Assembly: GCA_008632985.1 (NCBI GenBank)
Contig: QPGO01000024.1
Location: 449,848 to 513,847 of the forward strand
Direction of reading: 5' to 3'
Source of the DNA: Psammoneis japonica
Taxonomy: Eukaryota
Length of the DNA: 64,000 nucleotides
Position numbers and translations under genes: made by a program. The notes below the pieces were generated by a model, which ran no database searches, had not been told where the DNA came from, and saw only the letters and a program-made list of their open reading frames with translations. Each line of letters opens with the position of its first letter. Positions within the stretch are counted from its first letter, which is position 1. Shown in pieces: positions 1-49,488 of this stretch.

Positions 1-240
1 ACGCTGGCGGCCGCCGAGGAGCAGGTGAAGGCGGGGACCCATGCCGCCGTGAGCAGCGTGGTCATCTCGTGGCCTCAGAAGGCGGGGACAGCCATTGCGT
101 CATGAATGCAGCACGACCGCTGATTTCCCTGCAATTGCACACAATGCTGGGAACAGTGGCTTCATTGGACAAGAAGCACAAGAAAATCAATGACAAGCAG
201 CAAACAGCATGACGATGCAAAGAGCCACACTTGCACTTTG

Positions 241-267
241 GCAGCAGCAGCAGCAGCAGCAGCAGCA
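241..267 (+). repeat. (GCA)9 microsatellite
   Basis: Seen directly. Confidence 0.9.
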
Positions 268-959
268 ACAATGACAATGGCGAAGTGATTTGAGTGTTGT
301 TGTGGTTGTTGTGTGCAAGCAGTGAGCTTTGTTTTGAAACGACAAGTCGGTCTGCGATCATTGGATTTCCAACAAACTTTTTGGACATCACGCATTTAAA
401 GAAACTGAGTCATTTAAAAATGTGCAGCATGTAAAATCTCTCATGACCATGTGCTCAGAAAGACAAACAAACAGACAGACTGCCAATGCGGAAACCGCCA
501 GATGGGCATTTGTGCCGGGTGCTGGCAAAGACAGATGGACGGGCCACCAGGCCTCTTTGCATGTTGTGCCGCACCCAAGTTTAGACAGATGGAGATGACC
601 CACCAGTGGCACAACCACTCTGGACTTGATTCATTTGGAGAAGGGTGCCTCTCAGCCAAGTTGACCTGGTTGACATTTTTGACTGTGACCTGTCAAACTT
701 TGGTGCTCTTGCTTTCTCACTTTTCCAGCTTTTTGTTTGAACGGAACATTGATGGCTGTGGCTGGATCAGCACACTCCAGCTTGGAAAAGCCTGTTCTTT
801 TTTGCTCTTCTCTCTTCCCCATCATGTCAGACTTTTTTCTTCTGGTGTTGACAATGGTGCCTTCATCAATTTGGCTTGTCAGCTTGAATCTGATGTGTGA
901 TTTTGCCGCTGTTGTTGAGTTTCTCTCTCCTCCTCAGGCCCACCCTCCATGGGTGGAGC

Positions 960-1300
960 TTCAGTGGGGTCATGAGAGCTTAAATCCAGAATTTTCAAGC
1001 TTGAGTGTTGGTTTGAGACAGAGAGGAAATCATTTGCTGTCCTGGAGACATTGAAAGAAATTTGGTGTTGTTCCTTGGTCAATGTGTGCACTTGTTGTGT
1101 GTGTGTTGATTGCAAATGCATTTCATCATGTGGGGCATTTGATGCCCAAATGTGCCATGCATTTGCAGTTGATGTGCAATGAGTGCAGCCCCAAGTCACA
1201 GCACATCAAGGGGCATCATCACCCAGTTGCAGATGCCCTCAGCCATCTGGCAATGCAACCCAGCAGCAGTGGAGATGCTGGCTCTGCGCCCTTCACATGA
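960..1300 (+). mobile_element. Degenerate Ty3/Gypsy pol, RNase H region
   Basis: Translations ETERKSFAVLETLKE (cf. TEKELLSIVETLKEF) and HIKGHHHPVADALSHL (cf. YIKG..N.VADALSRL). Confidence 0.8.
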
Positions 1301-1859
1301 AGCACTCACTTTGCAGATGACCACAGTGCTGCCAGCAAGCTTTGTGCAAATGAAAAAAAGAACAAATCAGAGTTTTTGGCACTGCCACTCCATTGCCAGC
1401 TGGGCCATTGCTGGCCAACCCACACTCCCAGCATGCTGCTTCAGTGTGGCAGGAGCTTGCACAGGATCAGCCAGACTGGGTGCCACCAGAAGGTGACACC
1501 CCACCAAAATGACTGAAAAGGATTGACTTGCACAAGGAGTTCATTGTGTGCTCATTGGTGACAGCCACAGAGGGCACACCACCACAACTGCAAAAGGAGA
1601 ATGGCACTCATGCAGGTTTTCAAAAGAAGCAACAAGACACTTTGGAACATGCTGCCAAAACAAGTGCAAACTTGGATTGCAAGGCCGCTCATTCTTGACT
1701 GAGAAGAATTGTGACAATTGCAAGAAGCTTGGCCCTCAAAGCAGTGCAGAGCTGAGACAGCTGGCAAGCAGAGGAAAGACAGTGCAGGACTTGGATGCAT
1801 TGAGCCAGGAGCCTTGAAGGCAAGGCAGGCAGGTCATCAGGAAAAAGCACTCATTTCAT

Positions 1860-2310
1860 GTTGAAACAACACCACATCTTGTGCAGAAATGCCAGTGGCT
1901 CAGCAAATGGACAACAATCAAAGGTGTGGAAGGATGACTCTCATTTGTGCTCACAAGGGCAGCAACAGAGGCAGTGTTTTCCAACCCCAAAGAGTGAAGA
2001 ACTTGATTGAAGAGCAAAGAAAAGAGGTGGCATTGAAGACTGACTGGAGCGGGTGGAAGCAGTCATCCAGAGTTGTGACAAGCAGATCATCAGCAGCTTC
2101 ACACAGAAACACAGCCAGATCTTGTGCAGAAATGCCAACAGGCACAGCAAATGGATGACAATCATCAAAGGACACTGAAGGATGACTCATGCTCATGCCA
2201 GAAAGTGCCACAAGCAACAGAGGCAGTGCATTTACCCCAGAGAGTGAGGGGAAAAGAAGCAGTGTTGAAGACCAGCTGGCATGGACAGAAGCAGTCCAGA
2301 GATGCAATGA
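1860..2310 (+). repeat. Two diverged ~245-bp tandem units inside a ~1.3-kb insert splitting the Gypsy pol
   Basis: Shared blocks atcttgtgcagaaatgcca, cagcaaatgga, gaaggatgactc, agcaacagaggcagtg, ttgaagac at about 1875 and about 2119. Confidence 0.75.
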
Positions 2311-2739
2311 TGTGCAGATTGTCAACAATTTCTGCTGAACTGTGTGGAACTTGTGCTGAAACCTGTGCAGAAAATTTCTGAGATGACAGAAAATTGAAAG
2401 CAACAAATGTTGCTTGCAATGCTGCAATGAGGTTGAGGCTGCCATTGGCAAATGTGAACAAAATGGGCTTGTTGGAGCCAACATCACACTGTCTGAGAAG
2501 GGCAACATCAGCACAAGAAGTTGTGCAGAAAACAATGTAGAGACAGGGGTGTGCAGCTGACATTAAAAAGTGTGATTGCAAAAAGAACAGCTGCCTGTTT
2601 GCTGAAATGCACTGCACTCCAGTGTGCACTTCACCTGTGTGCTTTGTGGGGGAGGCACACAATGACAGCTGGCATGCCACGAGGACAAAATTGTTGCACT
2701 GGAGGTGTTGACAAAACCTCCAGCTGTGCAGTGCCTGAA

Positions 2740-3600
2740 CAGCCGCACTGCCCTGGCAAGACATGTGCAGAAGCAAACACCCCGCTGCCCATCACTTTCA
2801 CTGGCCTGGCATCATGAGGGCTGGAGTGCATTCTGCATGTGTGAAGTGAAAACAATGCCAGGAAATGAAATGCCAAACACAGCCAGCATTGCAAGAAGCT
2901 GCCAGAAAAAGCAGCCAAGACAATCCTTTTGGATGTGACAGGGGTTTCACCAAATTGAGCAATGTGGAAAAAACACTCTGCAAAGGTGAGCAGCAACTGT
3001 GATTGCCTTGCCAGCAGGGTGGTTCAAGTGCCAAGATTTTAGAAGTGTGCACCAAACATGCGGGTGTCACAGAGATGCAGCAAATGTCATGGAGCAAACC
3101 TGGCCATGCAGGCATCCAAATCCACAGGTGAGCACTTCTGTGAAATGCACACACCAGACACTTGGAGATGTGGTGTGCTCATTTTCAGTGCAAGACATGG
3201 AGTTGGACAAGGGCAGCCCATGGAAGGGCATCTTTTCAGCCACAGCTTTTGCCATGCATCCTGCATCACATGCCACTGCATGTGCAAGTCCCAAACAATT
3301 GGTCTTTGATGCAACGCAGCTCTTTTGTTCACCACCCTTTGTGTCAAGTGCCAAGTGGAAGCACACCTGATGCAGAAAGCCAAGCTGATGCACCCAAATG
3401 ACAAATGCAAAAGCACGAAACAAAAGGAGTGCCAACACACCACAGGGCAGTTGGTGCTTGCTGTCAAACAAGGACAAAAGACAAAACACACCAGAACTGG
3501 CTGTCGCACAGGTTCTGCCAGCATTGTCAGCATGAGCAAAACAGCACCACTTTGCATGCACAAGATGGTGTGCTGACACAGATGCACTGCCATGCCACAT
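2740..3600 (+). mobile_element. Degenerate Ty3/Gypsy integrase
   Basis: PGKTCAEA..HFHWPG (zinc-binding region), WPCRHPNP (cf. WLCRYPRP), HQTLGDVV...PWKGIFSATAFAM...SPKQLVF (cf. HQTLGNMLR...PWSGILSA.AFA.R...TPGQLVFG). Confidence 0.8.
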
Positions 3601-3619
3601 CACATTTTTCTTGATGCAA

Positions 3620-4110
3620 CAATTCAGATGAGCATTGCTGATTGATGCACTGCTGGAATGGCCCATTTTGTGCTCAAACTGCAGGGGTGGTCAGCTGCTC
3701 CAAGTTTGCATGAGAGGCCAATGGACAAACATGATGATGTTGTGGTGGCAGCATCATCAGCACTTTTCCACTGCCATGCGACAGCACAATGTTGTTTTTG
3801 ACACAACAACACAGATGAGCACCAACAGCTGGTGCATTAGAATGGTGACCCATTTTGCTCAAACTGCAGGAGCTTGTCATTTTGTTCAAACTTGTGTGAG
3901 GCCAACACCACTTTCATGATGATGTTGCAAGAATTTTGCTGCAGCCTTGTTGCAGTGTGTTTTTCTTTACAACACAGATGAGCACTGATGGCCAGCACAA
4001 CAGAACAACCAAATTTGCTCAAACTGCAGGAGTCACCAGCTCATTCAAATTGAAATGAGAGGCCAGTGGTGCCAAAATGATGACAACATGGTGGCGGCAT
4101 GTCAGCAATT
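3620..4110. repeat. Three diverged ~165-185-bp tandem units
   Basis: Anchors cagatgagca and gctcaaactgcagg and gaggcca recur in units starting near 3626, 3811 and 3975. Confidence 0.75.
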
Positions 4111-7100
4111 TCCCACAGTGCATTTGTCAATTTAGTGTCTTGCAAGTGGCAGTGATCAATTGGCGATCAATTGGCCATTGTTGCAGCGGCAAAAACAAAA
4201 ACCTCTTCCGTTTGCCATTTGCACTTCCTGTGCATGAAAAAGTGGCCAATTTGTCTTTGTGGTTGATTTTCCGTGCAACTGGCCAGAGCAGCAGCTGGCT
4301 GGAGAGCAGCTCCACTCCAGCCAGCCAGCTGGTCATCTGCACAAGCAACAAGCAGCGTGATGTCATGTGCAACATTCCTGGCCACGGCGATCCTGGCTGT
4401 GAAACATCACATTTGGGCAAAAAATGGCATGCCAGCAATTGATTTGTGGCCCCGGACTGCAACGAACTCATTTCTCATGTGTGTGTGCATGAGCCTTCAA
4501 ATGCTTCTTCGGATCACTTTTCCCTTGTGTCAACCATGTGCCCTCATGCCCTGCGGTGTTCAACGCTTTGCTGTCAATGGCAAAACAATCAGGGGTCATT
4601 GGAAAAACAGTGGTGGCATTTGGGATTGGAGCATCACATGACATCATGTTTTTGCAAAATGTGATCTGCTCTCTGCAGCAGAGAGGAGAGAGAGTCTGAG
4701 TCTGCCGCACACCAACGTGTGTGATTTACAACATTTTGCCACTTGTGGCAGTGTCCATGAAATGGAGGACTGATCAATGCCACAACAAACATTGTGAGCA
4801 TCAAAGAAAGTTGCATCATTTTTTGAAAACAAAAGGATGCTTCTTGAGTGAGGAGGAGGAGTTGCAACCCTTTTGAAGGGTCATGGTGACTGAAATGAAT
4901 GGGATGGGACCACCTGACCTGATGCCATTGGATCTCAGGTCATGGTTTGTGGGCTCATGGCAGTTTGCACTGTAGAGATAGAAATGGCAAAGCAGACAAC
5001 TCAGGAGGTGTGAATTGACCAGTTGCCAAATTGTGAGAACAAAAACCACTCCACTCAACAACCAACAACAACTTGTGGGAAACAACAAGTGAACCGCACT
5101 CACACCAAACTCAACACAGATGCACTTGGTGCAAAGGCCTGTCAAGAACGAGAAGTTCTTGATTGCATGAAAGAAGAACAGAAGTGAGGCTCATTCTCAA
5201 TTTGAACCCCAGACCTCCGATCTCATTCGTTTCTTGATCTGTGATTGGGTGAGTCGTTGATGGTGGTTGATGGTGGTTTCTGAGCGGTCATCATCACACG
5301 CAGCACATGTCACGTTGGAAAGGGGCCTTTGCAAGCAAGGGCAGGTTGTCAAATGGTGTGCTTGGCGCATTTGCACATGACGATGTTGCTGACACAGCCG
5401 GTCATCCCCTGAGTGAGCAGCGCTGTGCACGCTGTGGTTTGTGGCACACAGCACATGAACACTTGCTGACAATGCAAGGTCATTTTTCCCTTGTGTGCGC
5501 AACAAATCTCCCTTGTGTTGCACGCTGCAACATCAACTTGGCTGATGTGGAAGGTCATCCTTTGAGTGATTGCACCTTGTGTGTGGCACAAATTTGATGC
5601 CATGCACAGCACATGACATGAAGGGAAAGCAACTTTTAGAGTCATCACACATTGCCCCTTTGTCACTTTAATCTAGCTGGTCAAACACAGCTTTAAATTG
5701 CCATGATGCAGCACGCAGAGAGAGGACAGATCTTGGCACAAATTTCACCAGTCTAACACAAGCAACAAGGAGAGTGAACTCAGAAAATGCAAAGGCATTC
5801 TGAGCAGAAAGAAGCATCATTGTCAGCTGTTGCATGTTTGCCATCTCTCTTTGGTCTTTTTTTCTTTGCAGTGTGTGGCAGCTGCCCCCCTCTTCCTCTC
5901 TCAGAACAAGCTTGTCTCATCCACTTCCTTCCTGTCACTGTGTGCCACACAAACTGGTCAAAGCATTTTGCTTTTTAACTTTTCCACAAAGTGTCCTGAG
6001 TTGGTGCTGATGCAAGAGGAGGCCAAGCTCTTGCAGCTTGGAGCTGACCAGCAGCGTGTGCCTTCTGTGCTGCATGCTTGATGTCTCTTGCAAGCAGCGG
6101 CGGCTGTGCGAAACAATGTGTGCATGAGCTGCCACCTGCCCAAGGCTGCAAAAAATGGTTTGCTTCTCTCTGCATGGCTTTTTGACTTTTCTCATGCCCT
6201 CCTCACAAAAGCAAGCCTTTGTTTGCTCTTCCTGCTTCTGCTGCTGCCCAGAACCTTGCGCCAGTGCATGCTGGGGGTCATTTCTGTCTACCTCAGATGC
6301 TGTGTGCCTGTGAACACTTCCACTTTTTTCATTTTTTGTTGCTGTTGTTGCTCTGGCTCCTTGCTGCTCCAACATGCAGCACTGCTTTCTGCTGCTGACA
6401 CTGCTCCTTTTTGATGGTCTTGGCAGAGCACCTCTCTGCGAAGGAGCATCATGTTGGGAGCTCTGCACCAAAGCTGAAAGACAATTTTCCAGCTCTAAAG
6501 AGAGCTCATGCCAGAGGACATGCTTTTTTGTTCTTGTTTGACACAAGCAGCACGCGGCAGCACCAGCACAAAGCAAAGACATTTTCAGGGCAAGCTCCGA
6601 TGATGCTTTTTGGGCAAGCTTGGAGATTTTGCAACAAGCGCCAATGCAAAGTGCTGAATGCACTCTTTGTGGGGTGATGCTTGGTTGTTGACAACATGCA
6701 GGGATTTTTTGCTGGCCACCAGCTGGGGTCAACAACGAGCTCTTGCTCTGCTGGGTTGTGCTGCAGAGCATCTCAACTGCTTGCTTTTGGTGCCAAAAAA
6801 GTCTCGCCACTCTCCATTTGGCACCTTGTTGGTCCCTTCCACCTGCTTGTTCAAGCTGCAGCACACAGGCACAGCTGTCTGTGAGAGCTGGCACCAGCAC
6901 CCTGGCCCTCCTCCTGTGGCTTCTTTTTCATCCTCATCATTGGTGCCTCTTGCAGCCATCAGCACTGTGTGGATGGACACACTGCTTCTACACCAAATTC
7001 TTGTGCCTGTGCATCACACTTTGCTTCATAAATTTTTCCTTTTCCTTGAGTGCTGCAGCTGCCTTTGGTGACGGTGCTTGTGAAAAATCATCATTTGTTC

Positions 7101-7295
7101 ACCCCAGGTGAAAGTCCGGGTTACTTTTGCCTGCTGACTCTCGCTTCGCTCGAGTTGAGTTAAAAAATCAAAACCCTCTGCCCACACCAGGTAAAAAAAA
7201 AGCCTTTGCAAATCCACTGCCGAGGGAGGATTAGGAATGGCGCTACGAGAGCCAATCAGAATTCAGCATTTGGGATTTCTACTTAGGGGAGACCC

Positions 7296-7318
7296 TCGGA
7301 AAGTCGAGGACTTTCCGA
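7296..7318. other. Perfect 10-bp inverted repeat upstream of the transposase
   Basis: tcggaaagtc-gag-gactttccga; a CCAAT element (gagccaatcag) lies at about 7250. Confidence 0.7.
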
Positions 7319-7482
7319 CTAATTAATTGGCACTTTTTTGGAAAATCTGACGCAATCACTTAGGGACGAGGAGGTTGAGACAACTCTCCAAAAGCAGACA
7401 CAAGAATCAGAATGATGCGGAGACCGACTGTCATCTTCCTTTCGCGCCACGGAAAATCACAACAACACAGACTTCTCACGCG

Positions 7483-10400
7483 ATGAGAAAAATTCTCTCA
7501 CAAAAAAAACCCACGAGAGAGAAAAGTACAATCTCTACTGGTGCTTCGATGATGACGGACGTAACGGAAGAATCTGCTCCAACAAAAGAGGCCGAAGAGC
7601 GGCAGCTGCATCCTTTCTTTAGAAACATGGGCATTCAATCCCAGAAACGCAAAGGCTCCATCAAAACGAGCAAAAGCCAAGCGCACACACGCCAGAAGCG
7701 GACGCATCAGAGCGATTTTAGTGGGCGTAAGGTAGCAAGAGTAGACGACGGAACGAAGAAATGCAAGAGATGTGAGAGAGGTCCTACACATCATCATGGC
7801 CATGATCCCACATGTAAATTTTCAAAAAGGCACTCGCAAGTGAACGTCACCAAAGCTACCATGGATGCAGAGCGACGCGATAAAGAGCTGCACGAAACGA
7901 ACAACACGATTCCGGCTGCCCCAGTTGAGGGAGTTTCGACCATACGAGACCATTTTGGAACACAGAGACCTGAAGCTCGCATCATGTTGCCTCCTCCAGG
8001 TGTTTCCAATGTTTGCAAGCCGGTGAATTCGGGGGTGGCTGGTGCTGCAGGCCCCGTGGAGTACACGGATAATACTTGCAAGGCGGCCGCTATTACAAAA
8101 TTTTTGGTTGAGACTTTGAAACAAGAGATTCGAGCAAGAGTAAAAAAATACGAGAACTCCGAGGAGAGGACGAAGTGCCCGGCTGCAGTAAGTGCTCTCA
8201 TCAGCTATCTGTTGGACTCTATCAAGCCCAGATTCGAGCAAGGCAGCAACAAGTATCCTGTGGCTACAGCAAAAAGTATTAAGCTCAACGAGATGCTGGA
8301 GCTTAAGGATGAAACTTTTCCTCCTGGTACAATGTCATTTGAAGTTCCCAAGGATGACTGCACATTGCCACCTGATTGTTACTACCATCAGCTGCAAGGT
8401 ATGATAATACACATTGTTTGTTGGGAGCTGAATTATCCTAACATCTACATCCCCTGCATTGACGGAGAGTGCGACGGTGAAATGATTCATGACCGTATGG
8501 ACTTTACTCGATACGGTGGGGCGACACCAATATATTGCATCAGCGGGAAGACGCACATGGCGGTGTCAATGTGGTACGAATGCAATCAATGCAAAATTCG
8601 ATGCAAGGGCAACGACGGTCGACTACTGCACAAGCTGCCAAAAAGCCTACAGTCAGCATATCCAACGTTGCCTAAGTATGCTAGTGCAACCAACAAGTGG
8701 CATCTTACCAAGGAAACTACAAGACTCCTTGAGTCCATTATTGTCACGTACGCAGGCGGGGACAAGTTCTCGCACATGCTGCACCAAATGCGAGCCGACT
8801 ATTTCAAGGACCTCCAGAAAGAATACTATGACCGAGCCATAGACAAAACCGAAGACTGGGTGTCTTTTGAGGATTGGATGGGCGGGTACAGTCCATCAGG
8901 CTCTGCACTTCTCGATCTTTATGACGAAAGCGGCAAATCAAAATTGACAGCTCTGGCCACGTCCTCGTATGACAGGTGCACGAGATTAATACAGATGGTT
9001 GGAGCCGCCGTGAGTGTCGCATCCGATCACACTTTTCAGATTCTCAAAAACTACTCAAAGAAAGCAGGTGGAGCAGCTGGCCTGTTCACCATGTGCAATG
9101 AAAAGGGGCAGGTAGGAACCGCTTGCCTAACCCCAACATTGGAAGCAAAAGATTTTGCTCACGCGGCAGAACAGTTTGCCAGGCGAAAAAACGTACGACC
9201 GAAAATCCACTACAGCGACACCTGGCCGCATAAGTCGCAGCTATGGAAGACAATTTTCGGAATGAACCTAATCTGTCTGCTCGGGCTCTTTCATTGGATG
9301 CATCGAATTGTAAGAACGCTCCGAAAAGAGCATGCTGATTATTGGCAAGCTGTAAGTGATCTTAAGGCGACCGTATCGTATGCCGAGTGGTCCGACCGCC
9401 AAGCTGTGATACAAGCCCTGAAGGATGGCACTCTAAACAACAAAAAGCATTCTGACGAGGAGATACAAGATGTCATCCACTCTTCAAGGTGGAAGCACTA
9501 CCAGGAATACATTCGTCTCTGGAGGCACCCGCTGGAGAAAAGGCTCACTTTGCTTGAGGATTGGTTTGCTCGATACAAGTGCACTGCCTCCGACGGAGCC
9601 CCCGCTGCCGGAGGACGGCTAGATCCAGACAGTGGACTAACACTGTTTACAACCGACACAAAGGATGCAATTTTGAATGCGAAAGAAACCTCTAAGGGAT
9701 TGGACACTCCAGTGCCGAAGTCGGAGCAGTGCTGGCCAGTAGCGCCGTCCCTGCGGTCGAAAGCAAAACCAGTAAAGTGGCGAACGCTGCTAGGACCAGA
9801 ATCCAAATTGGAGAAGGCACACGATTCACTGGCACATTATGGAAATTGCGGAATGAGACATTCATTGATGGACTTGCTTACGTTGGAAGGATTAGTTTTG
9901 TACAATGAAACAATCGAAGAGAAGGAGCGAATCGAGAAAATGGATGCAACGGCGCGAGCCAAGATTCCATACGACTTTCGGGGCGTGGTTACTCATCGGA
10001 ATGTACTTGATCTAATTGAAATCAATAACCTTGCAATAAAAAAGGGGAAGAAAGCGCCATATCCGAATGTAAGGGAACTCGAGGAGGACACCGGCGAGCG
10101 TTTCTTGTCCCAGTGCCTGCTGGAGCAGAATGCAAGAAATGAAACGATTGCTCCACACCCCGAGACAGATCGATGCATGTGCAATCTCTGTGGGACGAAA
10201 CCGGTGCAAAATCCATACAAGCGAACAACAAGATCAGAAGTTGGAAACCGTGACGATGGGGAAACTGCAGCGGCGCCAACCGTTGAACCTACAAGCGGCA
10301 TTGTCGAAATTGCGATGGCTCCCGAGGTGACGGTTGAACCCATGTGCATGGATGCCACTCCATTGCTTAATGCAGCTCACGTTCAAGTCGAGGAGCAGTT

Positions 10401-10680
10401 CAACATGTTGCAAGCCATGAGAAGCACCCTCTCGCAACAGCTTGCTTTTGCATCGAGCATGAGTGCAGCCCTCCCATCTGTTCCATGTCAAGTGCAACCG
10501 GCTCTTTCAACTCTTAATGATCCAATACGAGATCAAAGGAAGCGAGACATTGATCCGTACTGTTGTCCTGCTTTCCTACAATACAAGCTGCAGCAAAGCT
10601 ACAGCGTGACGGGGTGCCGACCAAGAGGTCGACCAGCGCATTCTAAGGATTGCCCAAAGAGACAGCAGTCAAGAAGGTAG
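7483..10680 (+). mobile_element. Intact Dada-like DDE transposase ORF (1065 aa from ATG 7483)
   Basis: Uninterrupted ORF with normal composition. Cys-rich N-terminal region (PC...YECNQC), then SDHTF, MCNEKGQV..LT, P.IHYSD, LGLFHWMHR, H.DY...SDL and GPESKLEKAH, in the order typical of Dada-type transposases (DHTFK / NE.GQV / YxD / DxxH / GT..LE..H). Confidence 0.7.
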
Positions 10681-12877
10681 ATGTTATCATTGCTAGGCAC
10701 ATTTTATGCATGAGTTTTTGATTCACTATTTTATTTCAACGCTGCCGATTCCTACACTCCAACAGTATCAACAACCTTTGTTTTTAGCCGGGTTCGCAAG
10801 AGTTGCAGTAGTCGCAACAACAGCAGTAGTCACAAGAGTTGCAGCAGTGGTCGTAAGAGCTGAAGCAGCCGTCGTTCTTGCGTGCCCTATGGAACACGCT
10901 GTTAATGACTGAAGTCAGAAACAATGCCACAGAGATGAGCTCTAGGACAAAAGTAACGTTTGCAATGCAACAGAACCACGACCAGCTGCTCCAACACCGT
11001 AGACTCCCATGCTCCTGCACAACTGATCCAGTGCCACCTGCTCCCTGTGCCACCCAGCTGCAAAACTTTAACAATCCAAACCACCTTTGAGGGCAGGTGA
11101 ACCCTATCGCAACGGAGATTCGGGTCTGCGGCGATTGAAGGCACTCCCGTCCTTGGAAGTACCAGTCAACGCCTTACCGGGGAGCAACCCCTTGGCTCTC
11201 GTCAGCCGTCTCAATGTTCAGAGGTGGGGCCACATGAATATTATTGCAGAAAAAAATTACCGAGGCGCTGCTGCAGTCAGCAACCTCGGCAGTGGCCCGT
11301 GTTATTTAAAGACGAGGGCAACCTCGTCTGCCGCTTATACGCGGACTTTTCCAGCCAAAGTGGTAGATTGTAGATAAAAAAACGACACAAACCGCACCCA
11401 CAATCAATGTATGGCCATCAGTCTCTTCAAGTAGCGTGTCAATGGCACCTGAGGCAGCGCCGCAAGCAGCGATACTGCAAAAATCCTGAAACGCCACCCC
11501 GATGACTAGCAAACCCTCATTGACGACTGGAGAAGAGTCGACTGGAACCACAACGATTGCAGTGCGAAACATCAGCGTACGAGACGCCATTAATGCTCAA
11601 TACTTAAAGGAGGGCTCTTCAATCTGTCAAGAACGAACAGAAATTGCAACGCAAGAGTGAGAGACGAGTTCTAAAAATGGCAAAAGTACCAACGCATTTC
11701 TTATCCATTTTTCACGTTTTTCATACCTCTCTTTTCGTATATTCGTTTGTCAGAGAGAGCTTTAATGCGTGCTTTGTTGTCACGGCAGTATCACAAGTGA
11801 CGGCGACAATTTCAACTACCGGCTCTTGCAGCTGTCATGGTCGATTTTTTGTTTGGTGTCGGAGGGAAACTCCTGAATTGCGTAGATTTCTACGTAAAAT
11901 TCATACTAGAGATACTTCAACACTACAATGTCTCATCGGTGTCACCACGCCAAATTACTTCAACATGCGAGCACCCGGAGATCTGACACATCGGGTGGTG
12001 AAAAGGGAGAAAGAAGTGAGGATCGCTCTTCAAACCACTTCCGCAATTTAGATCAAGCTCGCTGCCCTCGCAACCCCTTCCTCTCTCCTTCCTTTCTCTC
12101 CTCTTCCTCCTTCTTTCTCCTCTCCCCTCCCCCCCTCTCGTGGAGTCACTAACCCCCCCAAAATCGGCACTGGATGGACGACTCATGGTGGCGTCGCCCA
12201 ACAATAACAGCAACAACAATTCTTGTCGTTGGGAGCCGTGGCGGAGGATGAAGACGGTGTGCTAGACGATATTCAAGCGGCATGTTGCGATGCCGACTAA
12301 CGACCTAATCGCGGATATACGTTTTGTGCATCTTGTGATTCATTTGCGTTTGATGATCCTCCCGGAATGGAAAGACTTGCTTAAACGTCGTGGTGTTCTT
12401 GTGGAAGATGATACAGTGACGGCGCCTCCTGAATACATTATCGTCCTCCAGAAGAAGTCGTAGAGCACCGCATTCAAGTAAATGAAGTGGACGGAGAGGA
12501 GTAGGAAGACGAAACTCACGAAAAAGCTAGACAACGAGAAGAAGAGATTCTTCATTAACGAAGACATGTTGCGTGCTGTTGTTTTGGAAGTGTAGGGGGA
12601 CTTGCCATCTGCCGGTGAGTATGATTGACTTGTGTGGTTCTGTTCTTTTTCTCTCAGCTGCACTGTGTTTCGTTTTATACCGTAGAGTAGTTATCAAGGC
12701 TCCCGAGAATTTTTTGTTTGTTTGCAAATTGAATCCAGTGACGGACGATGAGGACTCGGAACTGATCTTTTCACGCTTTGATCCTGAGGTCAAGGCTGAA
12801 ATTATTCGAGACACGAAACCGGCGCGTCTCTATTGCATCATGAAAACACAACATACGCATGATGCAACAATAAACAG

Positions 12878-13975
12878 CACTGGCGCATGTCACAATACCC
12901 ATGGCACTGCCAGAGGGTCAGAGGCGATTCAGATGAGGCACCGAGAGCCGCTTTTTGCTAAGTCTTCTCTCTCACGATCTCTTTAGACATTCGGTCGGTA
13001 TCTATGCTTCCTTTCGCTTCAACCTGCCCATTCCTCTATGCAGAGAAGTCGCAGCAACTTATCCTCTAAACCAGCTCGCATTCAATAAGGTCCGCCGAGA
13101 ACATTCTACTGCATCCACAATGAAGGAATCAGCCATTTGGTACCATACGTTGACAAAAGAATGAGAAATACGACTTTCATAAGTGCTCCTGCTGCGGCGC
13201 TTGGGCTTCTTGCAACTCACTTTACGCTCACTAACGAATCGTCATTCTCGTCTCACCTTGTCGAGCTACTTGGAAAACCTTTCAACGACGACAAGTCCCA
13301 TTACCTCCTCGACGATAACATCATCGTAGGCTCCCAGCTACATGGACTTTCAGTACGTGCCCGTTTTATGATAGCAGGCCGACGACTCGACTGCCAACAC
13401 GTCTCAACGCACCGGTACGCACGATGCAAGAATGAAACCTCAGTGGCGCGTGTCACGATACCCATGGCGCATGGCGCTCACAGAGGGCCAGAGGCGATTC
13501 AGATCAGGCATCAAGGAGCCGCTTTTCCCTAAGCATTCTCTCTCACGCTATCTTTGGACATCGTCGGTATCTATACTTCCTATTGCCTCAAACTGCCTAT
13601 TCCTCTACGCAGAGAAGTCGCCCCAACTTGCTTCTCCGGCATCCTCCAAACCTACTCGCATTCAACAAGGCTGAGAACATTCCACTGCATCCACACGGAA
13701 GGAATCGGTCATTTGGTACCATACGTTGACAAAAGAATGAGAATATGAGTTTCCTAACCGCTCCTGCTAAGGCGCTTGGGCTTCTTGCAACTCACTGTAC
13801 GCTCACTACCGAATCGTCACTCTCGTCTCACTTTGTCAAGCTACATGGAATCCTTTCAAAGACGACAGATCCCATTACCTCCTTGACGATAACATCATCC
13901 AAGGCTCCAAGCTACGCGGACTTTCAGTACGCGCCCTTTTTTGTTTCAGTCAGGCCGACTCGACTGCCAACATTG
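12878..13975 (+). repeat. Diverged ~565-bp tandem duplication with normal TpA content
   Basis: Colinear blocks tgtcac.atacccatggc, agaggcgattcagat, cagagaagtcgc, catttggtaccatacgttgacaaaagaatgagaa, ggcgcttgggcttcttgcaactcac, gactcgactgccaaca occur at about 12878-13400 and 13441-13975. Confidence 0.9.
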
Positions 13976-15899: not shown

Positions 15900-17900
15900 T
15901 GTAAAGTTTCAAAGTGTGTTTCACACATTTGAAACACGCCAACATGAAAATTGAGACACAAATCGGTCGCGCAGGGTAATTTTGCCTCAAGAGCGCCATC
16001 AAAAGATGGCGCTCAAGCTTTTTCGTATCTTCAGAGTGAAATGTCACCCCAAAAAAAGAAAAAGGGGGGACGCAATGCGGAGACAACAAGAAAACTTGCA
16101 AGTCAACCGCTTGCCAAGCCATTTCACTCCCTGCGAGTGAAGGCTTGCCGTGTCACCGTGTCGCCGGCACGGCGAAACCCCGATTCAGCGTTCCATCAAT
16201 GGCATGATCTGCTCGGCAAGCTCTTGCTGCTTTGCAGACAAACACTTGCTGTCTCTTTCAACAGCCGTGGTCTTGACTGACCAAGTGAACGGGCAACTTC
16301 CTGCGCTCAAAGGCACGAGAGTGACATGGACTCAAGGCTGGAGAGACGCACTTGATTTGCCCGACCTCTGGACTTAACTGGCAACACCCAAGCTGCCATT
16401 TGAGACAACACTTCGTGCAAGCAAAACATGTTGTGGAACACCAAACAAGAGAAAGCCATCAGAACCAGAGGAAGGGCGAGCCATCCTTGGGTGTCGCTGC
16501 ATTCCGGCTTGGCGAACAACAAACACATCATGCCGCAAACGATGCGTTGTGATCGAAAGCGTGAGAGATTTTGTTTGTGTTGTGACCGTTGCTAAATGTC
16601 TCATTCACTGTCACTTTTGTGCACCACAGCAGAGACAATGCCATCACTTCACATGCAGAAATGTGTTTTGAACTTGGCACTGACAAAATCATTGCTGATT
16701 CCTACGCAGACCATGCGGTTGCCACACAAAGCGCCAAAAAAACTGCCGCCGATGATGTCTGCGCCGTTGTCGAGGTCCGTCTGAGCACCATCAGAATTTC
16801 AAATTACTTCTCTACTGTGGCATGTGACGATGATGGCGCCATGCGCACATGGCATGACGATGACATTGGATGTGTTGTCGCAAAGCTCTGGATTGCATCA
16901 TCACAGCAGGAGACCACGGGAAAACAGGGCATCCGCCCAGATGGTGCGCAATTTTGCCTTGTTTTCCATTGAACAGTGTGCAACATAGAAGAGAAGGATG
17001 CACACATTCAGCGGTCGGCTGTCGCAAAAATTTGCGCGCGCTTTTGCTTGGACGTCTGACGTGCCAGCAGTTCTTTTCACCGGATCGCCAAAATGCGTGC
17101 CGTTCGAGCAGTTTTTTTTTACCGGATGGTAAAAAAAATGGCACTTCTTTTTTACCGTGCGGCAACGGAGACGTCAAACTTTTGCTGTTGAGGCAAATCA
17201 AAACCCTCTCGGTTTCAGCATGAGAACCGATGGACGTTTTCCATGCTGACGTTTGTCTTTGAGCTTTCCACATCCTCCGCCAAGCATCCAATCATCGCAC
17301 GAAGCCCCAAGGGAAGAAAGAAGGACTCAGCATGGGCCATGGTGGTTTTTTATGGCATCAGAGAGCGATCGCTGATGCTGTGTGCGAACAGCATTTTTAC
17401 CGGACGACGCAAAGTTGAGCCGTTCAAGCTGTTTTTTTTTGCCGCACGACTCAACATCAAGCCGTTCTTGCCAATGTTGTTTGGCGAAATCGCCAACACA
17501 AACTTTTTTAGCAATTGTCATCATTGCCCAAATACAAATTCCACATGGGCCCTTTGAAATGCATTTGACAACTTCTTTTCACAAATGTCCGAAGAACAAC
17601 AGCCATTCAATTTTCCCGTGCTCTCTGGTCGACAGGATGCATTGGCGTGTTGTTTGCATCCATTGTCAACTGATGTTCCCCATGAGCCAGCCGGGGCAGG
17701 GCTAGTTGGTCGCGCACATTTGGGTTCGATGCAGCCGTGCAACTGGCCATGCCCTGCAGGAAGAGCTGTTGGTGGCGCGCGAGCAGAAGCAACAAAGCAA
17801 AGAACACGGCGTGGGTCAAAACGTTGTAAAATGACACAACAACAAGCAGCGAGAAGAAACCCAACTTGACCCATGAATGCTGCGCATACATGTTGTCCAA
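15900..17900. other. Partially eroded domain B (TpA low, CpG largely retained)
   Basis: Few TpA in 16100-17800 while CpG remains frequent; no recognisable intact ORF. Confidence 0.6.
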
Positions 17901-18499: not shown

Positions 18500-21400
18500 T
18501 GCTCTGGCGCATCCTTCTGATCCTGTGCTACTTTTACCTGTTTTTTAGTTGGCTTGCAATGTGGTTTGTGCTGATGTCTGGAGAAGGCAAATGCTCTAGC
18601 TTGTTGGGTCTCTGGTGCTTTGCCACTCAGTTGTTGTTGTCAGTTCGCGCCTTGTGATTCACATTGTCAACAGTGCAACACTGCATTTCACATGGATGCA
18701 ACTTACACGACCATGCTGCCGATTTGTGGAGTGTCGGGGTTCCCATCTACGACATGATTGTTGGACACACTAATTTCGTGATCGTTTGTCTGAACGCTTG
18801 TTGCTCTTGCATTCGCTGGTTCTTGTCGCTTGTCGCTGGCCCACAGTGCCGTGGTCACACATGCCGACAAATGACACTCCCAAGGCCTTCTCCTACGAAA
18901 GTCCAACTCTCTGTCAAGCACTGCGACTTTGTTGCCATTGGAGCGTTCTGAGTGCCGTGACATCAATGCCCTGGATTGTGGACTTGTGCAGACACATGAG
19001 TGGAGGAACTCTCCACGGAGGAAACATGCTTGGCCAAGGAGCCAGATGGGATTATGCTGCGTGGTGTCCTTGTCTGATGATTGCAACAAAAAAAGGCCTG
19101 CAAGCACTTGAAAACATGTGGCACTTTGACATCAAGAGGTCATGCATTCGTCCAGGTTTCAAGTGCTCCAGTTGTCATGCTGCATCGTTTCTCTTGGCGA
19201 TGTCCTCTGCGAAATTCAAAATGCCGGAGCTGACTGCTCCCGTCGCTGACATCCCATGCCTCTTTAAGCTGCAACTGGACTAGGGCCATGCCACATGTTG
19301 CTTCCGATGATGTCTGCCTCAGAATGGAGCTCCAGATTCCACTCCTGGCCAGGCAGATTCAAGCTCCTCACCCCTCACTCTACCCCGAGCCCAGCGCTTC
19401 TGCTCACAGGGTTCGGAGACCTGTGGTTGGATAGATGCCGTGTGGCTCCGCGGATGCATTGTTGTTGCTGCAGCTGGGGAACAATCTGTCCTTCTTGGAA
19501 AGAATGCATTTGAATTGAAAGGGCAAAGAAACAGGTTTTGTGCTGTGGCTGTGGTGGTGCAGGTGGAAGCAGCGGCAGGAACCAAGTGCTCTTTACCTTA
19601 GATTCGCGCAACTGTTTGCTGTTCTGACTTAATCGACAACATTTGCATGGTCATGACAGGAGTCAATTGAAGCCGTGAAGTTGGACGATGCTGAAATCCA
19701 TGTGTGCCACTGGCCCACACTCCTTCTCTGCCACCCTCCCACCCTCTGACACACCCTGCACTCTCCTCTTACAGCCCATTTGGTTTGCTGCATGTTGATG
19801 AGTCTGTGGCTCCCAGATCACACTGGAGAGGAGGCTGTGTTTGCACATTTTTGCAGATCTTTGCCAAAATCTTCAACTTCACATCACTTGCAGTGTTGTG
19901 CTTCATGCTTGGGGCATCATTGAAGATGTCATCTGGAATGGCATCTGAAACCTTTGAGAACCACTTGTCAGCATTGACAAAGATCCAGCATTGAGATGTC
20001 TCATTGCTCTCCTCAGCATGCTCCCTGATGAGATTCATCTCACGAACTGCTTTCAGTGGCTCTGATTGAAGTCTGTGCTTGGCACATTCTCTGTCAATCT
20101 CACCCTCAAATTGCTCACACTCATGTTTCTTCAGGATCTTGAGCTTGGAGATGTGCTCCAGCCCAGGTGAGACTTCATGTCATGGGTGCACAGAATTTTG
20201 CATGCAAGCTCAACAGCACCAGAGCCCAACTGGCAGATGTTTTGTCTTCAACATCAAACAAACAACAGAGTGTTTGTGGTGCATTTGTTGCACCTCTTGC
20301 AACTCAACGTTTTTGAAGATTCTCCTGCCCTGTGCCGTTTGCAAGACATGTGAGAATGGCGCCACAAAATGTCAAAAGTTGTTGGGTGGACAGCCCAACA
20401 AGTGCACTGCAAAATGACAAAATTGTGCCAAATCCATGCAGAAATGATGTGCGTGCATGACACACGATGGATGAAAAAACTTTTGTCACAGCTGTGGTGC
20501 ACCCAAAGGTGAAGCTCAACTTCTTGTTGCAGCCATGCATTTTGTGATCAAGAAGCTCTTGTTCTAGATGCGCGACACTTGCTTTGAGACCAAGAGGTTA
20601 GAAAAAGCAGTGTCCTGACAGTTGAGGTGAGATGTCTTTGCCATGCTTGAGCTTTTGTGCACAATTTGGCACCCTTTCCTTGCCCCAATGTGCTGCAACA
20701 TTGCTGGCCTTTGACTCTGCCTTTTTCCCCTGTGCTTTGAGATTTTGACCACAGGGATTTCCTGGTTTCTTGTTGGCATTTCAAAAACTTGGTTGGTCCA
20801 AGCTCAGCCACAGTGGTCAACAATTGAGTTTCCAGGTGAAGCATGGTGCACTCAAGCTAAGGCATCTTCTTGACACCACAAAAATGCCCACACTTGTGCC
20901 ACTTTGGCAAGCTCTTTTTGTTGTCCCCTTTGTCAGATCTTCTGAGCATCATTTGCTCTCTGCACTCCATTGCCTTCCTTGTTGTCATGACACTCTCTTG
21001 TGAAACCATTGCTTGCAATTGCGCATGCATGTGCTGCTGTCTTGCCTTTTCCAGTGGATGCCACAAGAGCACCCAGCTTTGCCAATCTCTCACTTGTTGT
21101 TGTGCTGTGTGGAGGAATGATTTCCTTTAGAAATCACTGCAAAACACTTGGGGGAGTTTGGATTTGTTGAGTCACAAACAATGAGGACCCTGCCAGCAAT
21201 CTTGTCAATGGCCTTGCTGTGGAACACTGCCAGCAGGCACAGCAAGACAGACCTCAAAAAGCTGTTGTGCTGTGGAGCTTCCTTCTGGAGAAAGAAATGA
21301 GCAGAACTTGGCAAGACAGCTTGGATGAAAGAGTGTGGGCAACTGGCTTTCTTGTCAAAAAGCATGCAACAACTTGGCCGGTTGGTTGCTTGGTGCAGAC

Positions 21401-23640
21401 AGCTTTTTTGATTTTCTGCTCTGTTGCGAAGCAATGTGCACTGCATTTCTTGACATGCGATGTCATTTTCTTGACAAACCAACCATTCATTCAATCTTTG
21501 CTTGAAGTGCAGTGTCTTGCATCACTGCAATGTGATCCTAAACACCTTGAACTTGGCCGCTGTTTTCCATGTTCCTGTTGTGTCTTTGAGGTCCTGGATC
21601 TTGAGAGAAATGGCACACAAGGCAATGTTGTGACATCAGATGCCCTGGCACACCAACCACAGAATCAGGTCCTTGGCACTATTTCATGTGTGGGTTGACC
21701 TGTTTTTGTGTGAGTCCTGCAAGGAAAATGTGTCAGCAACAATCCATTCTGACAAAGCAAGCAACAGAAAGTTGGAGGAAAGGGTGCTCTCTTTTGCTTT
21801 TGTCATTGTCACTTTCCTGACACCTTCTGCCACTGCTTTTAAAACTCAAAATGCTTCACAGGAAACAAGCAAGATAGCCAACTGTCCACCAGTGTGCAAT
21901 GAGCAGCTCTTGCATTGCCCCGAGCAAGTCACCCAGCATCTTGAGTTTAAACAGCAAGTTTCCTGGCATTTCAGTGGCTGCCACAGGCATCTTTGTCCAT
22001 GCTGCATCTGCTGGCTGCCTCCACTTCAACTTCAGTTCTTTGCAAAAATGTGCAGGCTGTGCGAAGGAGTTGAGCTGCACTTTAATTGTCTGAACCACTG
22101 CTGCCAATGTGGTTTGCACTGGAAGCTGAAAGGCAGACTAGATGCCATGAATGCTGAATGAATCGGATGTCACTGGCTTGCAAAACATGCCTGCTGTGGT
22201 CAAAGCTTTGCCAGTGGACACTCAGAAGCACTTTGCCCCCACAGTTGCATGTTTGTCCCTTGAACTTTTGATTTTAATTGCCAAGGCATCACAGGCTCTG
22301 CTTTGCACCAGTGGTGATGTCTTTGCTGTGCTCTTCGTTCTGTTGCAGGTGAGGTTGGCAGAAAATTGCATCAAAGAGCCATGTTGGAGTGTCACAATTT
22401 TGTCTGCTTTGCTCCAGATTCTGAGCATTCTCACTTCTTGCATGTTTTGTCCACTGTCAGACTGCACAAATGAACAACCGGTCTTTGACACTGTGTTTCC
22501 AAAGATGACAAGCTGTGTGATGGCAAGTTCCACCACCCAGTTGTCCAGCATGGAATGCCCTGGACTTGACTTTGCAACAACTGTGAAGTGCCCTGGGCTT
22601 GACTTTGCAATGAAGAGCTGGTTGAAGGAGAAGCATTTTCCACAGTCTTTTTGTCTACAATGCACTTCCAGTTCAAGCATGAAAGTGCACCTTGAAAGTC
22701 AAATCAGAATCTCTTGGTTGATTCTTGACATCCGCAGATGCACAACTCAATGTGAGTGTGGCAAAAAGCTGCTTGGTGCATGGTGTCAGCAAATTTTTCC
22801 TTGTTTGCAAAGCTTCTTCATTGTGCTCACCACTGCTCTTTCTTGTTTGCAGCACCCAAGGTCTCCTTTCTTGGTGCAGCAACAGCTGGAGCTTGTTTTT
22901 GCGAAGCACCCATTTGTTGGAGGAAGCACCTGTGGTGCAAGGATCGGTCTGTCACTCTTGCTGCTGGAAAGAATGCAACAACATCTGAAGGAAATGGAAG
23001 TGATGGGTGTGCAACCTTCCAACAGGCTGGTGACATGAAAATGCACCATTGAAGCTTGTTGGCAATTTTTCCTTGGGTTCTTTTGGGTCGGGTGTTGTTG
23101 TCCTTTGCTTCTTCTGACTAGAAAGAGCTGTTGTCCCATGCATGCAAACAAGTCAGGTGATCTGTTGGAACAGCAAAATTGTCTTGTTCTGAAACGCAGT
23201 AAAGTGGCACATTCCTTTTTTGCGTTGGACTGACAGCGATGTGCAGGCTGTTGAAACCCAACGTGAATCCAGGCACAAGAGTGGGCTTGTTGCTGCTGAA
23301 CATCAAATGCCTTGACATGCCAGAAATCACATTATTCACATTGTATTTGAAAGAAAATGCACCCAGACGAAGCGGACCCAATCTTTGTCAGGGAACCCAT
23401 CAGTTGTGTGTCTTGGTGTCGTTCGACGCATTGATGAAGGCCTCGAATGCTTCGAGACGCGCTGAGTTCATTTTGCCATCAATTCGTCAAAGCAGCCCAA
23501 TCAAAAGAATGATCAATGTGTTTTTGGTCTGTGTCTTTGTTCGATCGGGCTGCTGATGCTGTCTTGTCAAGAAATGCCCTGCAACGACAACTGTCATTGT
23601 CTGTGGCAAATCGATGCCGTGATGAAAGTGCGGCATGGTG
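18500..23640 (-). pseudogene. TpA-eroded domain C, probably a decayed long minus-strand gene or TE of unrecognised family
   Basis: TpA/CpG depletion strongest centrally. Protein-like minus-strand fragments (e.g. 19769-20038, 22222-22680, 23118-23381); no family motif recognised. Confidence 0.5.
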
Positions 23641-31945: not shown

Positions 31946-32840
31946 AGGATTCGTTAAAGCTAGTCTCGTGTAATATTTCTATGCATACATGTATTACAAC
32001 TGATTCCAGAGATGCTAGATAGAAGTTAGTTAGACTAGAAGTAGTATCCCCTCGGAAGCGCTATGTCCGGCATCACATTGGCGGTGGGACAGCTCTCGCC
32101 TGAGCCGCTCAATCTCTGCGAATGCGTCATCGCGCTCTTGTCGTAAGCGTCGCGCTTCGGGATTGTCGGGAACCAATCTCCAGTTTGGGCAGAGTTCTTA
32201 TCAAGACAGGGAACAGCTGCACAGGAAGAACTCTGACAGGGAGTTTGCCTTGATCTTCGGACAACAATGCACCCAGGCATTGTGCAATTGCACAGAGGTG
32301 CACAAGGATTCCTTGGGTGGATGTTGATAACAGCAACAATGTCATCCAACAGCTCAAGTCAATTGGGAGCTGCACAATGCAGAGGCAAACACACCAAGGT
32401 CCCGTGCACACAGTTGTTGACTCCAAACACTTGCTGATCACATTGGAGCGCGCAATGTGGTGATCCAGACCACCTTTCTCATGGCGATTTTTTGTTAATC
32501 TATTGTGGCATGCAACTCCATTGTTTCAAACTTTGACAGTTGTGCACATGGTGATAATTTGTTAAATGTGATGAGCAAAAAAGTGCCATTGTGGGTGACC
32601 TCCATTCCCCATGAGATGCAACCTTTAACTGTAAAAATGCAACCTGTTCCCCCTTCAGAGTGCATGCCTTTCTTACCTTTTTAATGTGACATTACAAAGC
32701 CTTTTGACAAAACAAATTTGTGCTGACAAACACTTTCAACGTGGTTTACAAAATTCACATTTCCAGGCATTTGTCAATCAATGGGATGAAACATCTCTCA
32801 ATGAACACTGAATTGCTGCATTCCCAGTTTGTAATTGTTT

Positions 32841-33815: not shown

Positions 33816-34009
33816 ATCAGATCAATCTTGGTCTGAGGTGGCACACACACTTGAAGGGGGGGTCCAACAGGCAGGGCTCACCAGTGCCTGATTGCGGGTG
33901 CTCGAAATTGAACCCTCCCCCAACACAACACACACATGACAGAAAAGTTGTTGTCACTTCTGAGTCCCAGGGCAATCCATCCCCATGCATGCCAGTGAAT
34001 GATGTGAGT

Positions 34010-36210: not shown

Positions 36211-36214
36211 CGCT

Positions 36215-49450: not shown

Positions 49451-49488
<38 letters not shown>

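Follow-up and report, generated by a model that had tools for sequence, protein, structure and literature searches.

What turned the most conserved tyrosines and arginines of a transposon protein into histidine, cysteine and glutamine, and did it act on the gene or on the chromosome around it? The question is raised by 64,000 nucleotides of the diatom Psammoneis japonica (contig QPGO01000024.1, positions 449,848 to 513,847), referred to as the window and numbered in nucleotides (nt) from its first letter. Judged from sequence homology, nt 1148-3459 (plus strand) are the 3' half of pol of a dead Ty3/Gypsy long terminal repeat (LTR) retrotransposon in a diatom nuclear genome. A preliminary description of this DNA had read four short motifs there as a record of Tyr-to-His changes. 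Our main finding is that Tyr-to-His is half of a strand-symmetric process in which Tyr also becomes Cys, and Arg becomes Cys and Gln as well; its cause is not motif-specific, being a domain-wide and near-total conversion of TpA and CpG to CpA and TpG. We consider it quite likely that most of the damage to this dead copy stems from transitions at CpG and TpA in the chromosomal block that holds it, the TpA half being a targeted hypermutation.

A Gypsy pol remnant and its conserved codons

Transposon remnants treated in this way are invisible to annotation of the Pfam type, and the integrase became clear once relatives were used. The three plus-strand frames of nt 1-4500, read through with X at stops, matched no Pfam family at E <= 1, and 133 open frames of at least 70 residues over 1-21.7 kb held no transposon domain at E <= 0.01. 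An exhaustive phmmer search with the frame-2 read-through of nt 1055-3370 gave 107 proteins at E <= 1e-3 (best 7.6e-10), 106 of which had their best match on nt 3008-3364, most between 3104 and 3326. Among nine of these relatives, Pfam found rve in five (three above its own cut-off) and Integrase_H2C2 in six, the longer relatives bearing both domains. A search for longer proteins from one relative (P0129) gave 675 matches among 4189 candidates, and the best 120 of the 675 matches served as intact relatives: they are pols of 804-1486 residues, most of about 1050, with protease, RVT_1, RT_RNaseH_2, RT_RNaseH, Integrase_H2C2 and rve in succession, the domain order of Ty3/Gypsy. A family profile hidden Markov model of 1045 positions, built from the first 70 of these 120 and searched against the six-frame window, matched in four places:

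nt 1157-1288, plus strand: profile 594-637, i-Evalue 3.1e-5
nt 2769-2882, plus strand: frame 3, profile 736-772, i-Evalue 0.025
nt 2942-3127, plus strand: profile 796-852, i-Evalue 1.1e-3
nt 3113-3439, plus strand: profile 883-987, i-Evalue 4.6e-18

The four matches are colinear in the window, the rest of which gave zero matches to the profile at E <= 10; since they are colinear and found only at this locus, they identify nt 1148-3459 as the 3' half of a Gypsy pol. The remnant spans the RNase H tail, the H2C2 zinc-binding domain and the integrase core, and the end of RNase H (profile 591-637) lies 5' of the integrase (684-995) on the same strand, the gene order of Gypsy as opposed to Copia. 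An environmental clade of Ty3/Gypsy (Metaviridae) elements of about 5 kb has the same succession of RNase H tail, H2C2 and rve core; unlike in those elements, only the 3' half of pol is recognisable here, and the gene is dead. Upstream of nt 1148, profile positions 1-590 are unmatched (the best score, 26.3 at nt 1018-1059, is borderline against a null of 25.3). Neither reverse transcriptase nor gag nor an LTR was detected, LTRs not having been sought specifically, and blastn of nt 1-6000 against the window returned local tandem repeats only. The copy is thus a fragment, and its missing parts limit what can be said of a complete element, not of its family origin.

To score this degraded DNA, each frame was compared ungapped with the family profile, both plainly and with each CA or TG allowed as a former TA or CG. 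Reversion raised the true segments from 70 to 127, 43 to 88, 31 to 59, 27 to 51 and <20 to 52, gains of 23-57 bits or more, while the maximum of a minus-strand null of the same composition went only from 19.6 to 25.3. Reversion-aware scoring therefore recovers such remnants; applied to the six frames of the window, it gave nothing beyond noise outside nt 1148-3459. The parts of the copy are as follows:

nt 1148-1288, plus strand: end of RNase H, holding HIKG (1202) and ALSHL (1235); frame 2, profile 591-637
nt 1289-2608, plus strand: over-long linker of 440 codons joining RNase H to the integrase; the 120 relatives have 33-66 residues there
nt 2609-2719, plus strand: N-terminal segment of the integrase, with an in-frame TGA; frame 2, profile 684-720, score 31 plain and 59 with reversion
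nt 2793-2925, plus strand: what remains of the H2C2 zinc-binding domain, read partly in frame 3 and partly in frame 1; profile 744-785
nt 2942-3118, plus strand: integrase core, first part; frame 2, profile 796-849, scoring 32.4 and 50.7 in the reversion-aware comparison
nt 3119-3307, plus strand: integrase core, second part; frame 2, profile 885-947, scoring 70 plainly and 127 once reversion is allowed
nt 3373-3459, plus strand: post-core segment with a Tyr-to-His change (CAC at 3436); frame 1, profile 967-995, score <20 plain and 52.4 with reversion

The RNase H segment accounts for the rise from 43 to 88, and the H2C2 remnant has reversion-aware scores of 30.1 and 29.0. Damage is spread over the whole copy. 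In the H2C2 remnant, which carries HFHWPG at 2793-2810, a TGA at 2847 replaces an invariant Cys and a Tyr has become Cys (TGC) at 2890; the first core part reads GFH for GPY (CAC at 2948) and CRHP (CAT at 3113). An in-frame deletion of about 35 profile positions (850-884) at nt 3118/3119 joins the two core parts directly, and a Glu invariant in 120 of 120 relatives is Lys at 3143. The reading frame changes at least four times between 2719 and 3373, three in-frame stops interrupt the aligned columns, and the copy carries an expansion of 1.2 kb. The linker holds a diverged tandem duplication (1863-1997 and 2106-2247, 73% identity), and contigs of the public sequencing run X1 skip 330-597 bases inside it.

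Each of the four motif strings occurs once in the window, and a string search places all of them where the preliminary description had put them:

nt 1202, frame 2: HIKG, CACATCAAGGGG, which continues as HIKGHHHPVADALSHL
nt 1235: ALSHL, GCCCTCAGCCATCTG
nt 2793, frame 3: HFHWPG, CACTTTCACTGGCCTGGC
nt 3107, frame 2: CRHP, TGCAGGCATCCA

The description had held that these motifs give the direction of change by themselves, and indeed the family consensus polarises them. HIKG stands for YIKG in a column with 119 Tyr and 1 His among the 120 intact relatives (the window codon is CAC), and CRHP for CRYP in a column that is Tyr in 120 of 120 (codon CAT). ALSHL, which had been read as ALSRL after a CpG-to-CpA change, falls in a column that is Arg in 120 of 120; its CAT is one CpG>CpA step from CGT, and 72 environmental DNA relatives have CGN in 49 cases (CGT in 19) and AGR in 22. 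The fourth example fell away: the column of HFHWPG (codon CAC), taken as a change from HFYWPG, is Thr in 46%, Tyr in 25 of 120 (21%) and Trp in 17%, and six of the 120 intact relatives carry His, which the description had itself named as grounds for abandoning its reading. As this column is variable and some intact relatives have His in it, the motif is not diagnostic. The Tyr-to-His reading thus stands on three of its four examples and on further ones given below, within a process that is broader than Tyr-to-His.

A tabulation of Tyr and Arg codons against intact pols, the check that had been proposed, bears this out. It covers eight robust segments (255 columns) compared with the 120 intact relatives. 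All five columns with at least 90% Tyr (92-100%) have changed, to His at 1202, 2948, 3113 and 3436 (each a CAY codon) and to Cys at 2890 (TAC to TGC), so that zero Tyr is left across the 255 columns. Of the nine columns with at least 90% Arg (98-100%), eight now read Cys (1151, 3146, 3176), His (1160, 1244, 3257) or Gln (1166, 3421), and the sole Arg kept is an AGG at 3110. The 2310 codons in the three plus frames of nt 1148-3459, one of which is TAY, provide the background: frequencies of 0.119 for CAY plus TGY and of 0.246 for CAN plus TGN give chance probabilities of P = 2.4e-5 for the Tyr result (5 of 5 His or Cys) and 9.5e-5 for the Arg result. By comparison, His or Cys is found in 2 of 74 other invariant columns (Fisher p = 9e-7 against the Tyr columns). 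Conserved Tyr and Arg codons are therefore a simple, polarised read-out of the process.

Dinucleotide specificity is also seen when the conserved columns are taken together. At 93 columns the consensus of the environmental clade reaches 90% or more; the remnant agrees with it at 51 and departs from it at 42. A single CA/TG reversion restores 23 of the 93 (CG>CA 8, CG>TG 5, TA>TG 6, TA>CA 4), whereas shuffled pairings restore 5.8 +/- 2.1 with a maximum of 16 in 5000 shuffles; the remaining 19 columns differ in other ways. In a specificity control with non-overlapping sites, a transition reversion at a CA/TG site improved the fit in 71 of 403 cases; the yield was 30 of 362 with other transitions and about 8% with transversions. 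When only the plainly defined segments were used, CA/TG reversion improved 28 of 211, against 11 of 176.

TpA and CpG across the window

The codon changes belong to blocks, designated here as erased, in which both dinucleotides have nearly disappeared. A 500-base profile delimits them:

nt 1-7000, no strand: erased block holding the remnant
about nt 19000-23500, 32500-47500 and 59500-64000, no strand: further erased blocks

The erased state takes up some 31 of the 64 kb (about 48%). In most 500-base windows of these blocks, TpA is at 0.00-0.17 and CpG at 0.00-0.3 of the expected level; over the first 6 kb (2-kb windows), the values are 0.04-0.07 for TpA, 0.08-0.28 for CpG and 1.8-2.2 for TpG and CpA, and nt 1148-3459 contain 4 TA, 9 CG, 311 CA and 258 TG. 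The losses and gains balance when 29 kb of erased DNA are compared with 26 kb of normal DNA: TA frequency is 0.0033 against 0.0408 and CG frequency 0.0092 against 0.0543, while CA and TG are each at 0.1141 against 0.0727. The summed loss of TA and CG (0.0826) equals the summed gain of CA and TG (0.0828), with base composition unchanged.

Selection, or biased gene conversion, could also remove TA and CG words, for example to avoid nuclease or insertion sites, and word avoidance this strong is known in phage genomes. The DNA in question is, however, a dead gene with stops and frameshifts, its changes at invariant protein positions disregard function, and selection able to clear tens of kilobases of junk of about 95% of two dinucleotides would have to be implausibly strong. 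We regard this explanation as very improbable.

Erasure is confined to domains, with edges towards genic DNA that are sharp at 500-base resolution. Genic blocks have TA at 0.4-0.85 and CG at 0.7-1.3 of expectation. Intergenic spacers within gene-dense blocks escape erasure, which makes the process domain-specific rather than a genome-wide neutral bias. Moreover, some stretches have lost TA only (16001-17500, 26001-27000 and, in part, 62501-64000; TA 0.00-0.16, CG 0.4-1.2), and the reverse state, CG lost and TA kept, is found in only one 500-base window. Because TA-loss-only stretches exist, TpA loss is independent of CpG loss and the two processes are separable. The few surviving TA are unevenly distributed: taking the density in normal DNA as 1, TTAA stands at 0.49, CTAA/TTAG at 0.35, CTAG at 0.10 and other contexts, those with a preceding purine or a following pyrimidine, at <=0.09, with ATAT, GTAC and ATAC/GTAT at 0. 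The YTAR survivors may reflect a flank preference of the process. A further consequence concerns stop codons, of which 1403 among 1567 in six frames of the erased blocks are TGA, TAA and TAG being nearly absent. Per 100 codons, the density of stops drops from 3.70 to 2.70. With TGA almost the sole stop, long spurious open reading frames (ORFs) arise on both strands of the erased blocks, up to 330 codons (for example, 5935-6927, minus strand).

Repeats within the window provide evidence of the process that is independent of any protein. Twelve paralogue alignments within erased blocks, several of them from one tandem array so that the pairs are not all independent, contain 395 mismatches in 2023 columns. 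Adjacent double mismatches are CA against TG in 68 of 155 cases, the next class having 8, a pattern predicted if the copies each resolved a single ancestral TA or CG independently. In six alignments from normal blocks, CA against TG accounts for 7 of 64 double mismatches; the top classes among 415 single mismatches there are CG/TG (27), TA/TG (21), CA/CG (17) and CA/TA (15), and the same dinucleotide steps may thus be the most mutable in normal blocks too. The arrays used for this test are diverged and lie in erased and normal blocks (36200-36925, 12854-13972, 3585-4116); Tandem Repeats Finder misses these three at its thresholds.

These pairs also bear on the idea that an ADAR-like activity edited the RNA or cDNA of the retrotransposon from adenosine to inosine before integration, so that the copy arrived hypermutated. 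The element is a retrotransposon, and ADAR-type enzymes are described as preferring U before the edited A (bioRxiv 10.64898/2026.01.13.699255). Yet editing of genomic RNA would give A>G only, and the sense-strand changes at TA are balanced (6 to TG, 4 to CA); erasure is uniform through non-pol flanks and in blocks of up to 15 kb; and tandem paralogues, duplicated in place, afterwards went different ways at one and the same ancestral step. We see hardly any likelihood in prior editing of this kind.

Relatives elsewhere tell what the element looked like at the outset. In 80 environmental loci of the same family, the TA observed/expected ratio has a mean of 0.80 and a minimum of 0.57 (CG mean 0.97), and the family therefore started with normal TA. 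Three of these copies (L040, L065 and L028) have CG at 0.12-0.20 and normal TA at 0.57-0.65, from which it follows that methylation decay alone leaves TA in place; their hosts seem, from composition, to methylate the element without erasing TpA. Among the 107 phmmer relatives, seven have no Tyr at all. At least two conserved Tyr columns are covered by 36 of them; Tyr is complete in 23 of the 36 and wholly lost in five (P0131, P0136, P0160, P0168 and P0217), with His or Cys at 12 of 13 conserved Tyr columns; P0217 keeps five of seven conserved Arg. These five, which are public metagenome or assembly proteins, reveal the same decay in other public data sets, and assemblies of four other public sources contain Tyr-free relatives.

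They also count against an artefact of assembly or base calling, in which a modified C at CpG would have been called as T and a modified A at TpA as G, the chromosome itself still having CG and TA. Misreads on two strands would yield the same CA/TG ambiguity, and the library type of run X1 is not on record. X1 holds 0.86 of sampled words and is the sole sequencing run with the stretch; no RNA run is among the sequencing runs listed for it. Its k-mer contigs (word depth about 55-72) give the erased sequence again, one of 317 bases covering 2612-2927 with 0 other letters, and this agreement speaks against a base-calling artefact. Furthermore, the frameshifts, the deletion and the 19 of 93 columns changed in other ways indicate that the element is truly old. 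Taken with the Tyr-free relatives in other assemblies, this leaves an artefact exceedingly improbable.

Candidate causes of the TpA change

The observations are best accounted for by two dinucleotide-specific, strand-symmetric transition processes that hit the chromosomal DNA of the whole surrounding block, one taking CpG and the other TpA to TpG or CpA, both almost to completion. In this way TAY (Tyr) became CAY (His) or TGY (Cys), and CGN (Arg) became CAN (His, Gln) or TGY (Cys), only AGR codons for Arg surviving. The data demonstrate the homology, the direction and dinucleotide specificity of the changes, their strand symmetry, the mass balance and the restriction to domains. The CpG part would be deamination of 5-methylcytosine (5mC) in methylated transposon DNA. 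The TpA part would be an A:T-to-G:C hypermutation aimed at foreign or repeated DNA that has been silenced, of the kind described in Bigelowiella natans.

For the CpG part, diatom transposons are reported to be methylated, by DNMT5a, and diatoms to have a DNMT4 of unknown function related to the fungal RIP (repeat-induced point mutation) enzyme RID (PMC9998398). The change of CGN Arg codons to His, Gln or Cys and the CG observed/expected ratio of 0.0-0.3 in erased blocks resemble the CpG decay of methylated transposons; TpA loss, by contrast, cannot be produced by such decay. RIP in ascomycete fungi likewise wrecks transposon genes by dinucleotide-specific transitions and leaves blocks of odd composition beside normal genes. 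It was rejected as a cause here, since it would turn CpA into TpA and enrich TpA, which is at 0.00-0.17 of expectation over most 500-base windows of the erased DNA, with CpA and TpG about doubled. ADAR hyperediting and APOBEC also inactivate mobile elements by deaminase-type transitions with a neighbouring-base preference, but they act on RNA or single-stranded cDNA and mark one strand, whereas both strands and the flanks outside the element are affected in this window.

The TpA part has a closer counterpart. As described in a preprint (bioRxiv 10.64898/2026.01.13.699255), 231 of 302 nuclear mutations in mutation-accumulation lines of B. natans fell in two integrated viral regions, which are silent inserts; 230 of these 231 were A>G or T>C, all 230 at TpA, at a rate about 1000-fold over baseline and in only some of the lines. 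TpA-depleted coding sequences of that genome are enriched in reverse-transcriptase and DDE domains, and an ADAT2-like enzyme that deaminates adenine in DNA is what its authors suggest as the agent (bioRxiv 10.64898/2026.01.13.699255). Our window has the same mutational signature, namely A>G and T>C transitions at TpA that give TpG and CpA on two strands, and it shares the long-term pattern of clustered TpA depletion with a gain of CpA and TpG, in sequences bearing reverse-transcriptase or DDE domains. The confinement to domains suggests targeting as well: in B. natans, silent or foreign domains are affected and genes are spared, and domains are affected here too, although their foreign origin is recognisable only in part. 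The differences are several. B. natans is a chlorarachniophyte (Rhizaria), the present host a diatom (Stramenopila); the target that can be recognised here is an LTR retrotransposon in place of a giant virus or virophage; the rate was measured there, while here it is inferred from old DNA; and erasure is far more complete, TA being down to a frequency of 0.0033 across 29 kb when the hypermutable viral region of B. natans has 3.3% TpA. Finally, most of the blocks erased here have lost CpG too, and the text of the preprint contains 0 occurrences of 'CpG' and 0 of 'diatom' (bioRxiv 10.64898/2026.01.13.699255). By analogy, the TpA half would most simply be the same kind of process, near saturation, in a diatom. 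As to its chemistry, deamination of adenine in TpA on DNA is the most likely step, and we favour it tentatively.

It is conceivable that TpA decayed passively, in place, through a chromatin-linked modification or lesion such as an oxidised thymine that mispairs with G, and with no defence deaminase. TpA and CpG are both self-complementary pyrimidine-purine steps with the same sink, and they are lost in the same domains. Background change is modest, 19 of 93 invariant columns differing otherwise, so that a rate advantage of some tens of fold over a long time would be enough, and the YTAR survivors would fit a lesion with a flank preference as well as an enzyme. On the other hand, literature searches found no such thymine modification for diatoms. 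N6-methyladenine (6mA), also rejected as a cause, is reported at ApT on active genes and as barely mutagenic, and Phaeodactylum tricornutum had only 5mC in that report (bioRxiv 10.1101/2024.10.28.620566). In addition, the process as described in B. natans is episodic between lines, which argues for regulated activity (bioRxiv 10.64898/2026.01.13.699255). We consider passive decay unlikely.

Several points weigh against a targeted hypermutation as the source of the TpA half, or against the figures on which it is based. Some segments were found only by the reversion-aware score, and the counts in them are partly ascertained; plain HMMER alignments alone give a smaller Tyr figure, with three of three His, and in their nine Arg columns six His, Gln or Cys, two AGG and one Ala. 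The alignment of nt 3373-3459 is ambiguous, HMMER preferring a gapped frame-2 reading. The mass balance assumes that erased DNA started with the composition of the genic blocks. The two TA-loss-only stretches at 16001-17500 and 26001-27000 blur the nature of the target, and only two transposon remnants are recognisable in the approximately 31 kb erased, so that most of it is no more than putatively foreign. Run X1 is probably the source sample and hence not independent. The mechanism is drawn from one 64-kb window, and the precedent is a single preprint on a distant lineage (bioRxiv 10.64898/2026.01.13.699255). Literature searches gave no report of TpA erasure in diatoms, that preprint being the one closely matching paper.

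If targeted hypermutation is nevertheless the correct explanation, it would be a large force in genome evolution, nearly half of the window being affected. The signature, found in a diatom and more advanced than in B. natans, suggests that the process is old or recurrent among marine algae. A bolder proposal, which we find rather doubtful, is that diatoms have a defence that edits DNA in targeted chromatin domains, turns TpA into TpG or CpA on both strands of transposon and viral DNA, almost completely and independently of cytosine methylation, and belongs to an ancient system shared with Bigelowiella. Were this true, TpA-directed editing would be a widespread immunity of the Stramenopila-Alveolata-Rhizaria (SAR) supergroup against mobile elements and a major shaper of diatom intergenic DNA.

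Neighbouring sequences

The second transposon remnant recognisable in the erased blocks, besides the Gypsy copy, is at 61951-62808 (plus strand) in the right-hand block, where a stop-free frame has a weak RVT_1 match (E 0.0013, below Pfam's cut-off). The Gypsy family profile has no match there, and the frame is probably, by its sequence, a second decayed retroelement of another family. The single N of the window is at 62772. Apart from RVT_1, Pfam gave five weak matches (E <= 0.01) on the 133 open frames of 1-21.7 kb and a further 150 from the erased blocks, DUF7356, QH-AmDH_gamma, DZR, GREB1_C and DUF5536, which were taken as noise; at 21.7-32 kb and 47.8-59.5 kb, Pfam coverage is only among 14 long ORFs. 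In PDB sequence searches, nt 2990-3367 had 0 matches at E <= 10, and the one match of nt 2712-3002 was spurious (His-tag).

The compositionally normal parts bear ordinary nuclear genes, namely PPR, Maf, D-glutamate-cyclase-like, TsaD and UPF0047. The best named relatives of the cyclase-like and TsaD ORFs are all diatoms, among them Seminavis, Odontella, Fistulifera and Nitzschia at 48-50% identity, and also Mediolabrus, Conticribra, Thalassiosira, Attheya and Fragilaria at 61-71%. A (GCA)9 microsatellite at 241-267 resembles a GCA run in the cyclase-like ORF (49452-49491), a trivial low-complexity similarity.

An intact ORF of 1109 codons with normal TA and CG content (7351-10680, plus strand) adjoins the erased block that holds the remnant. 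No Pfam family matches this ORF; its protein-language-model features place it close to DUF6729 proteins, a group linked with Mutator/KDZ-type transposases, with a score (0.96) that serves as a lead only. Word depth in X1 is 350-1870 over 7200-9000, compared with about 60 for single-copy DNA, and the ORF therefore belongs to a high-copy element, which is probably young. Fifteen variant positions are listed there, and at five of them (7734, 7944, 8142, 8150 and 8221) the window has TA where other copies have TG.

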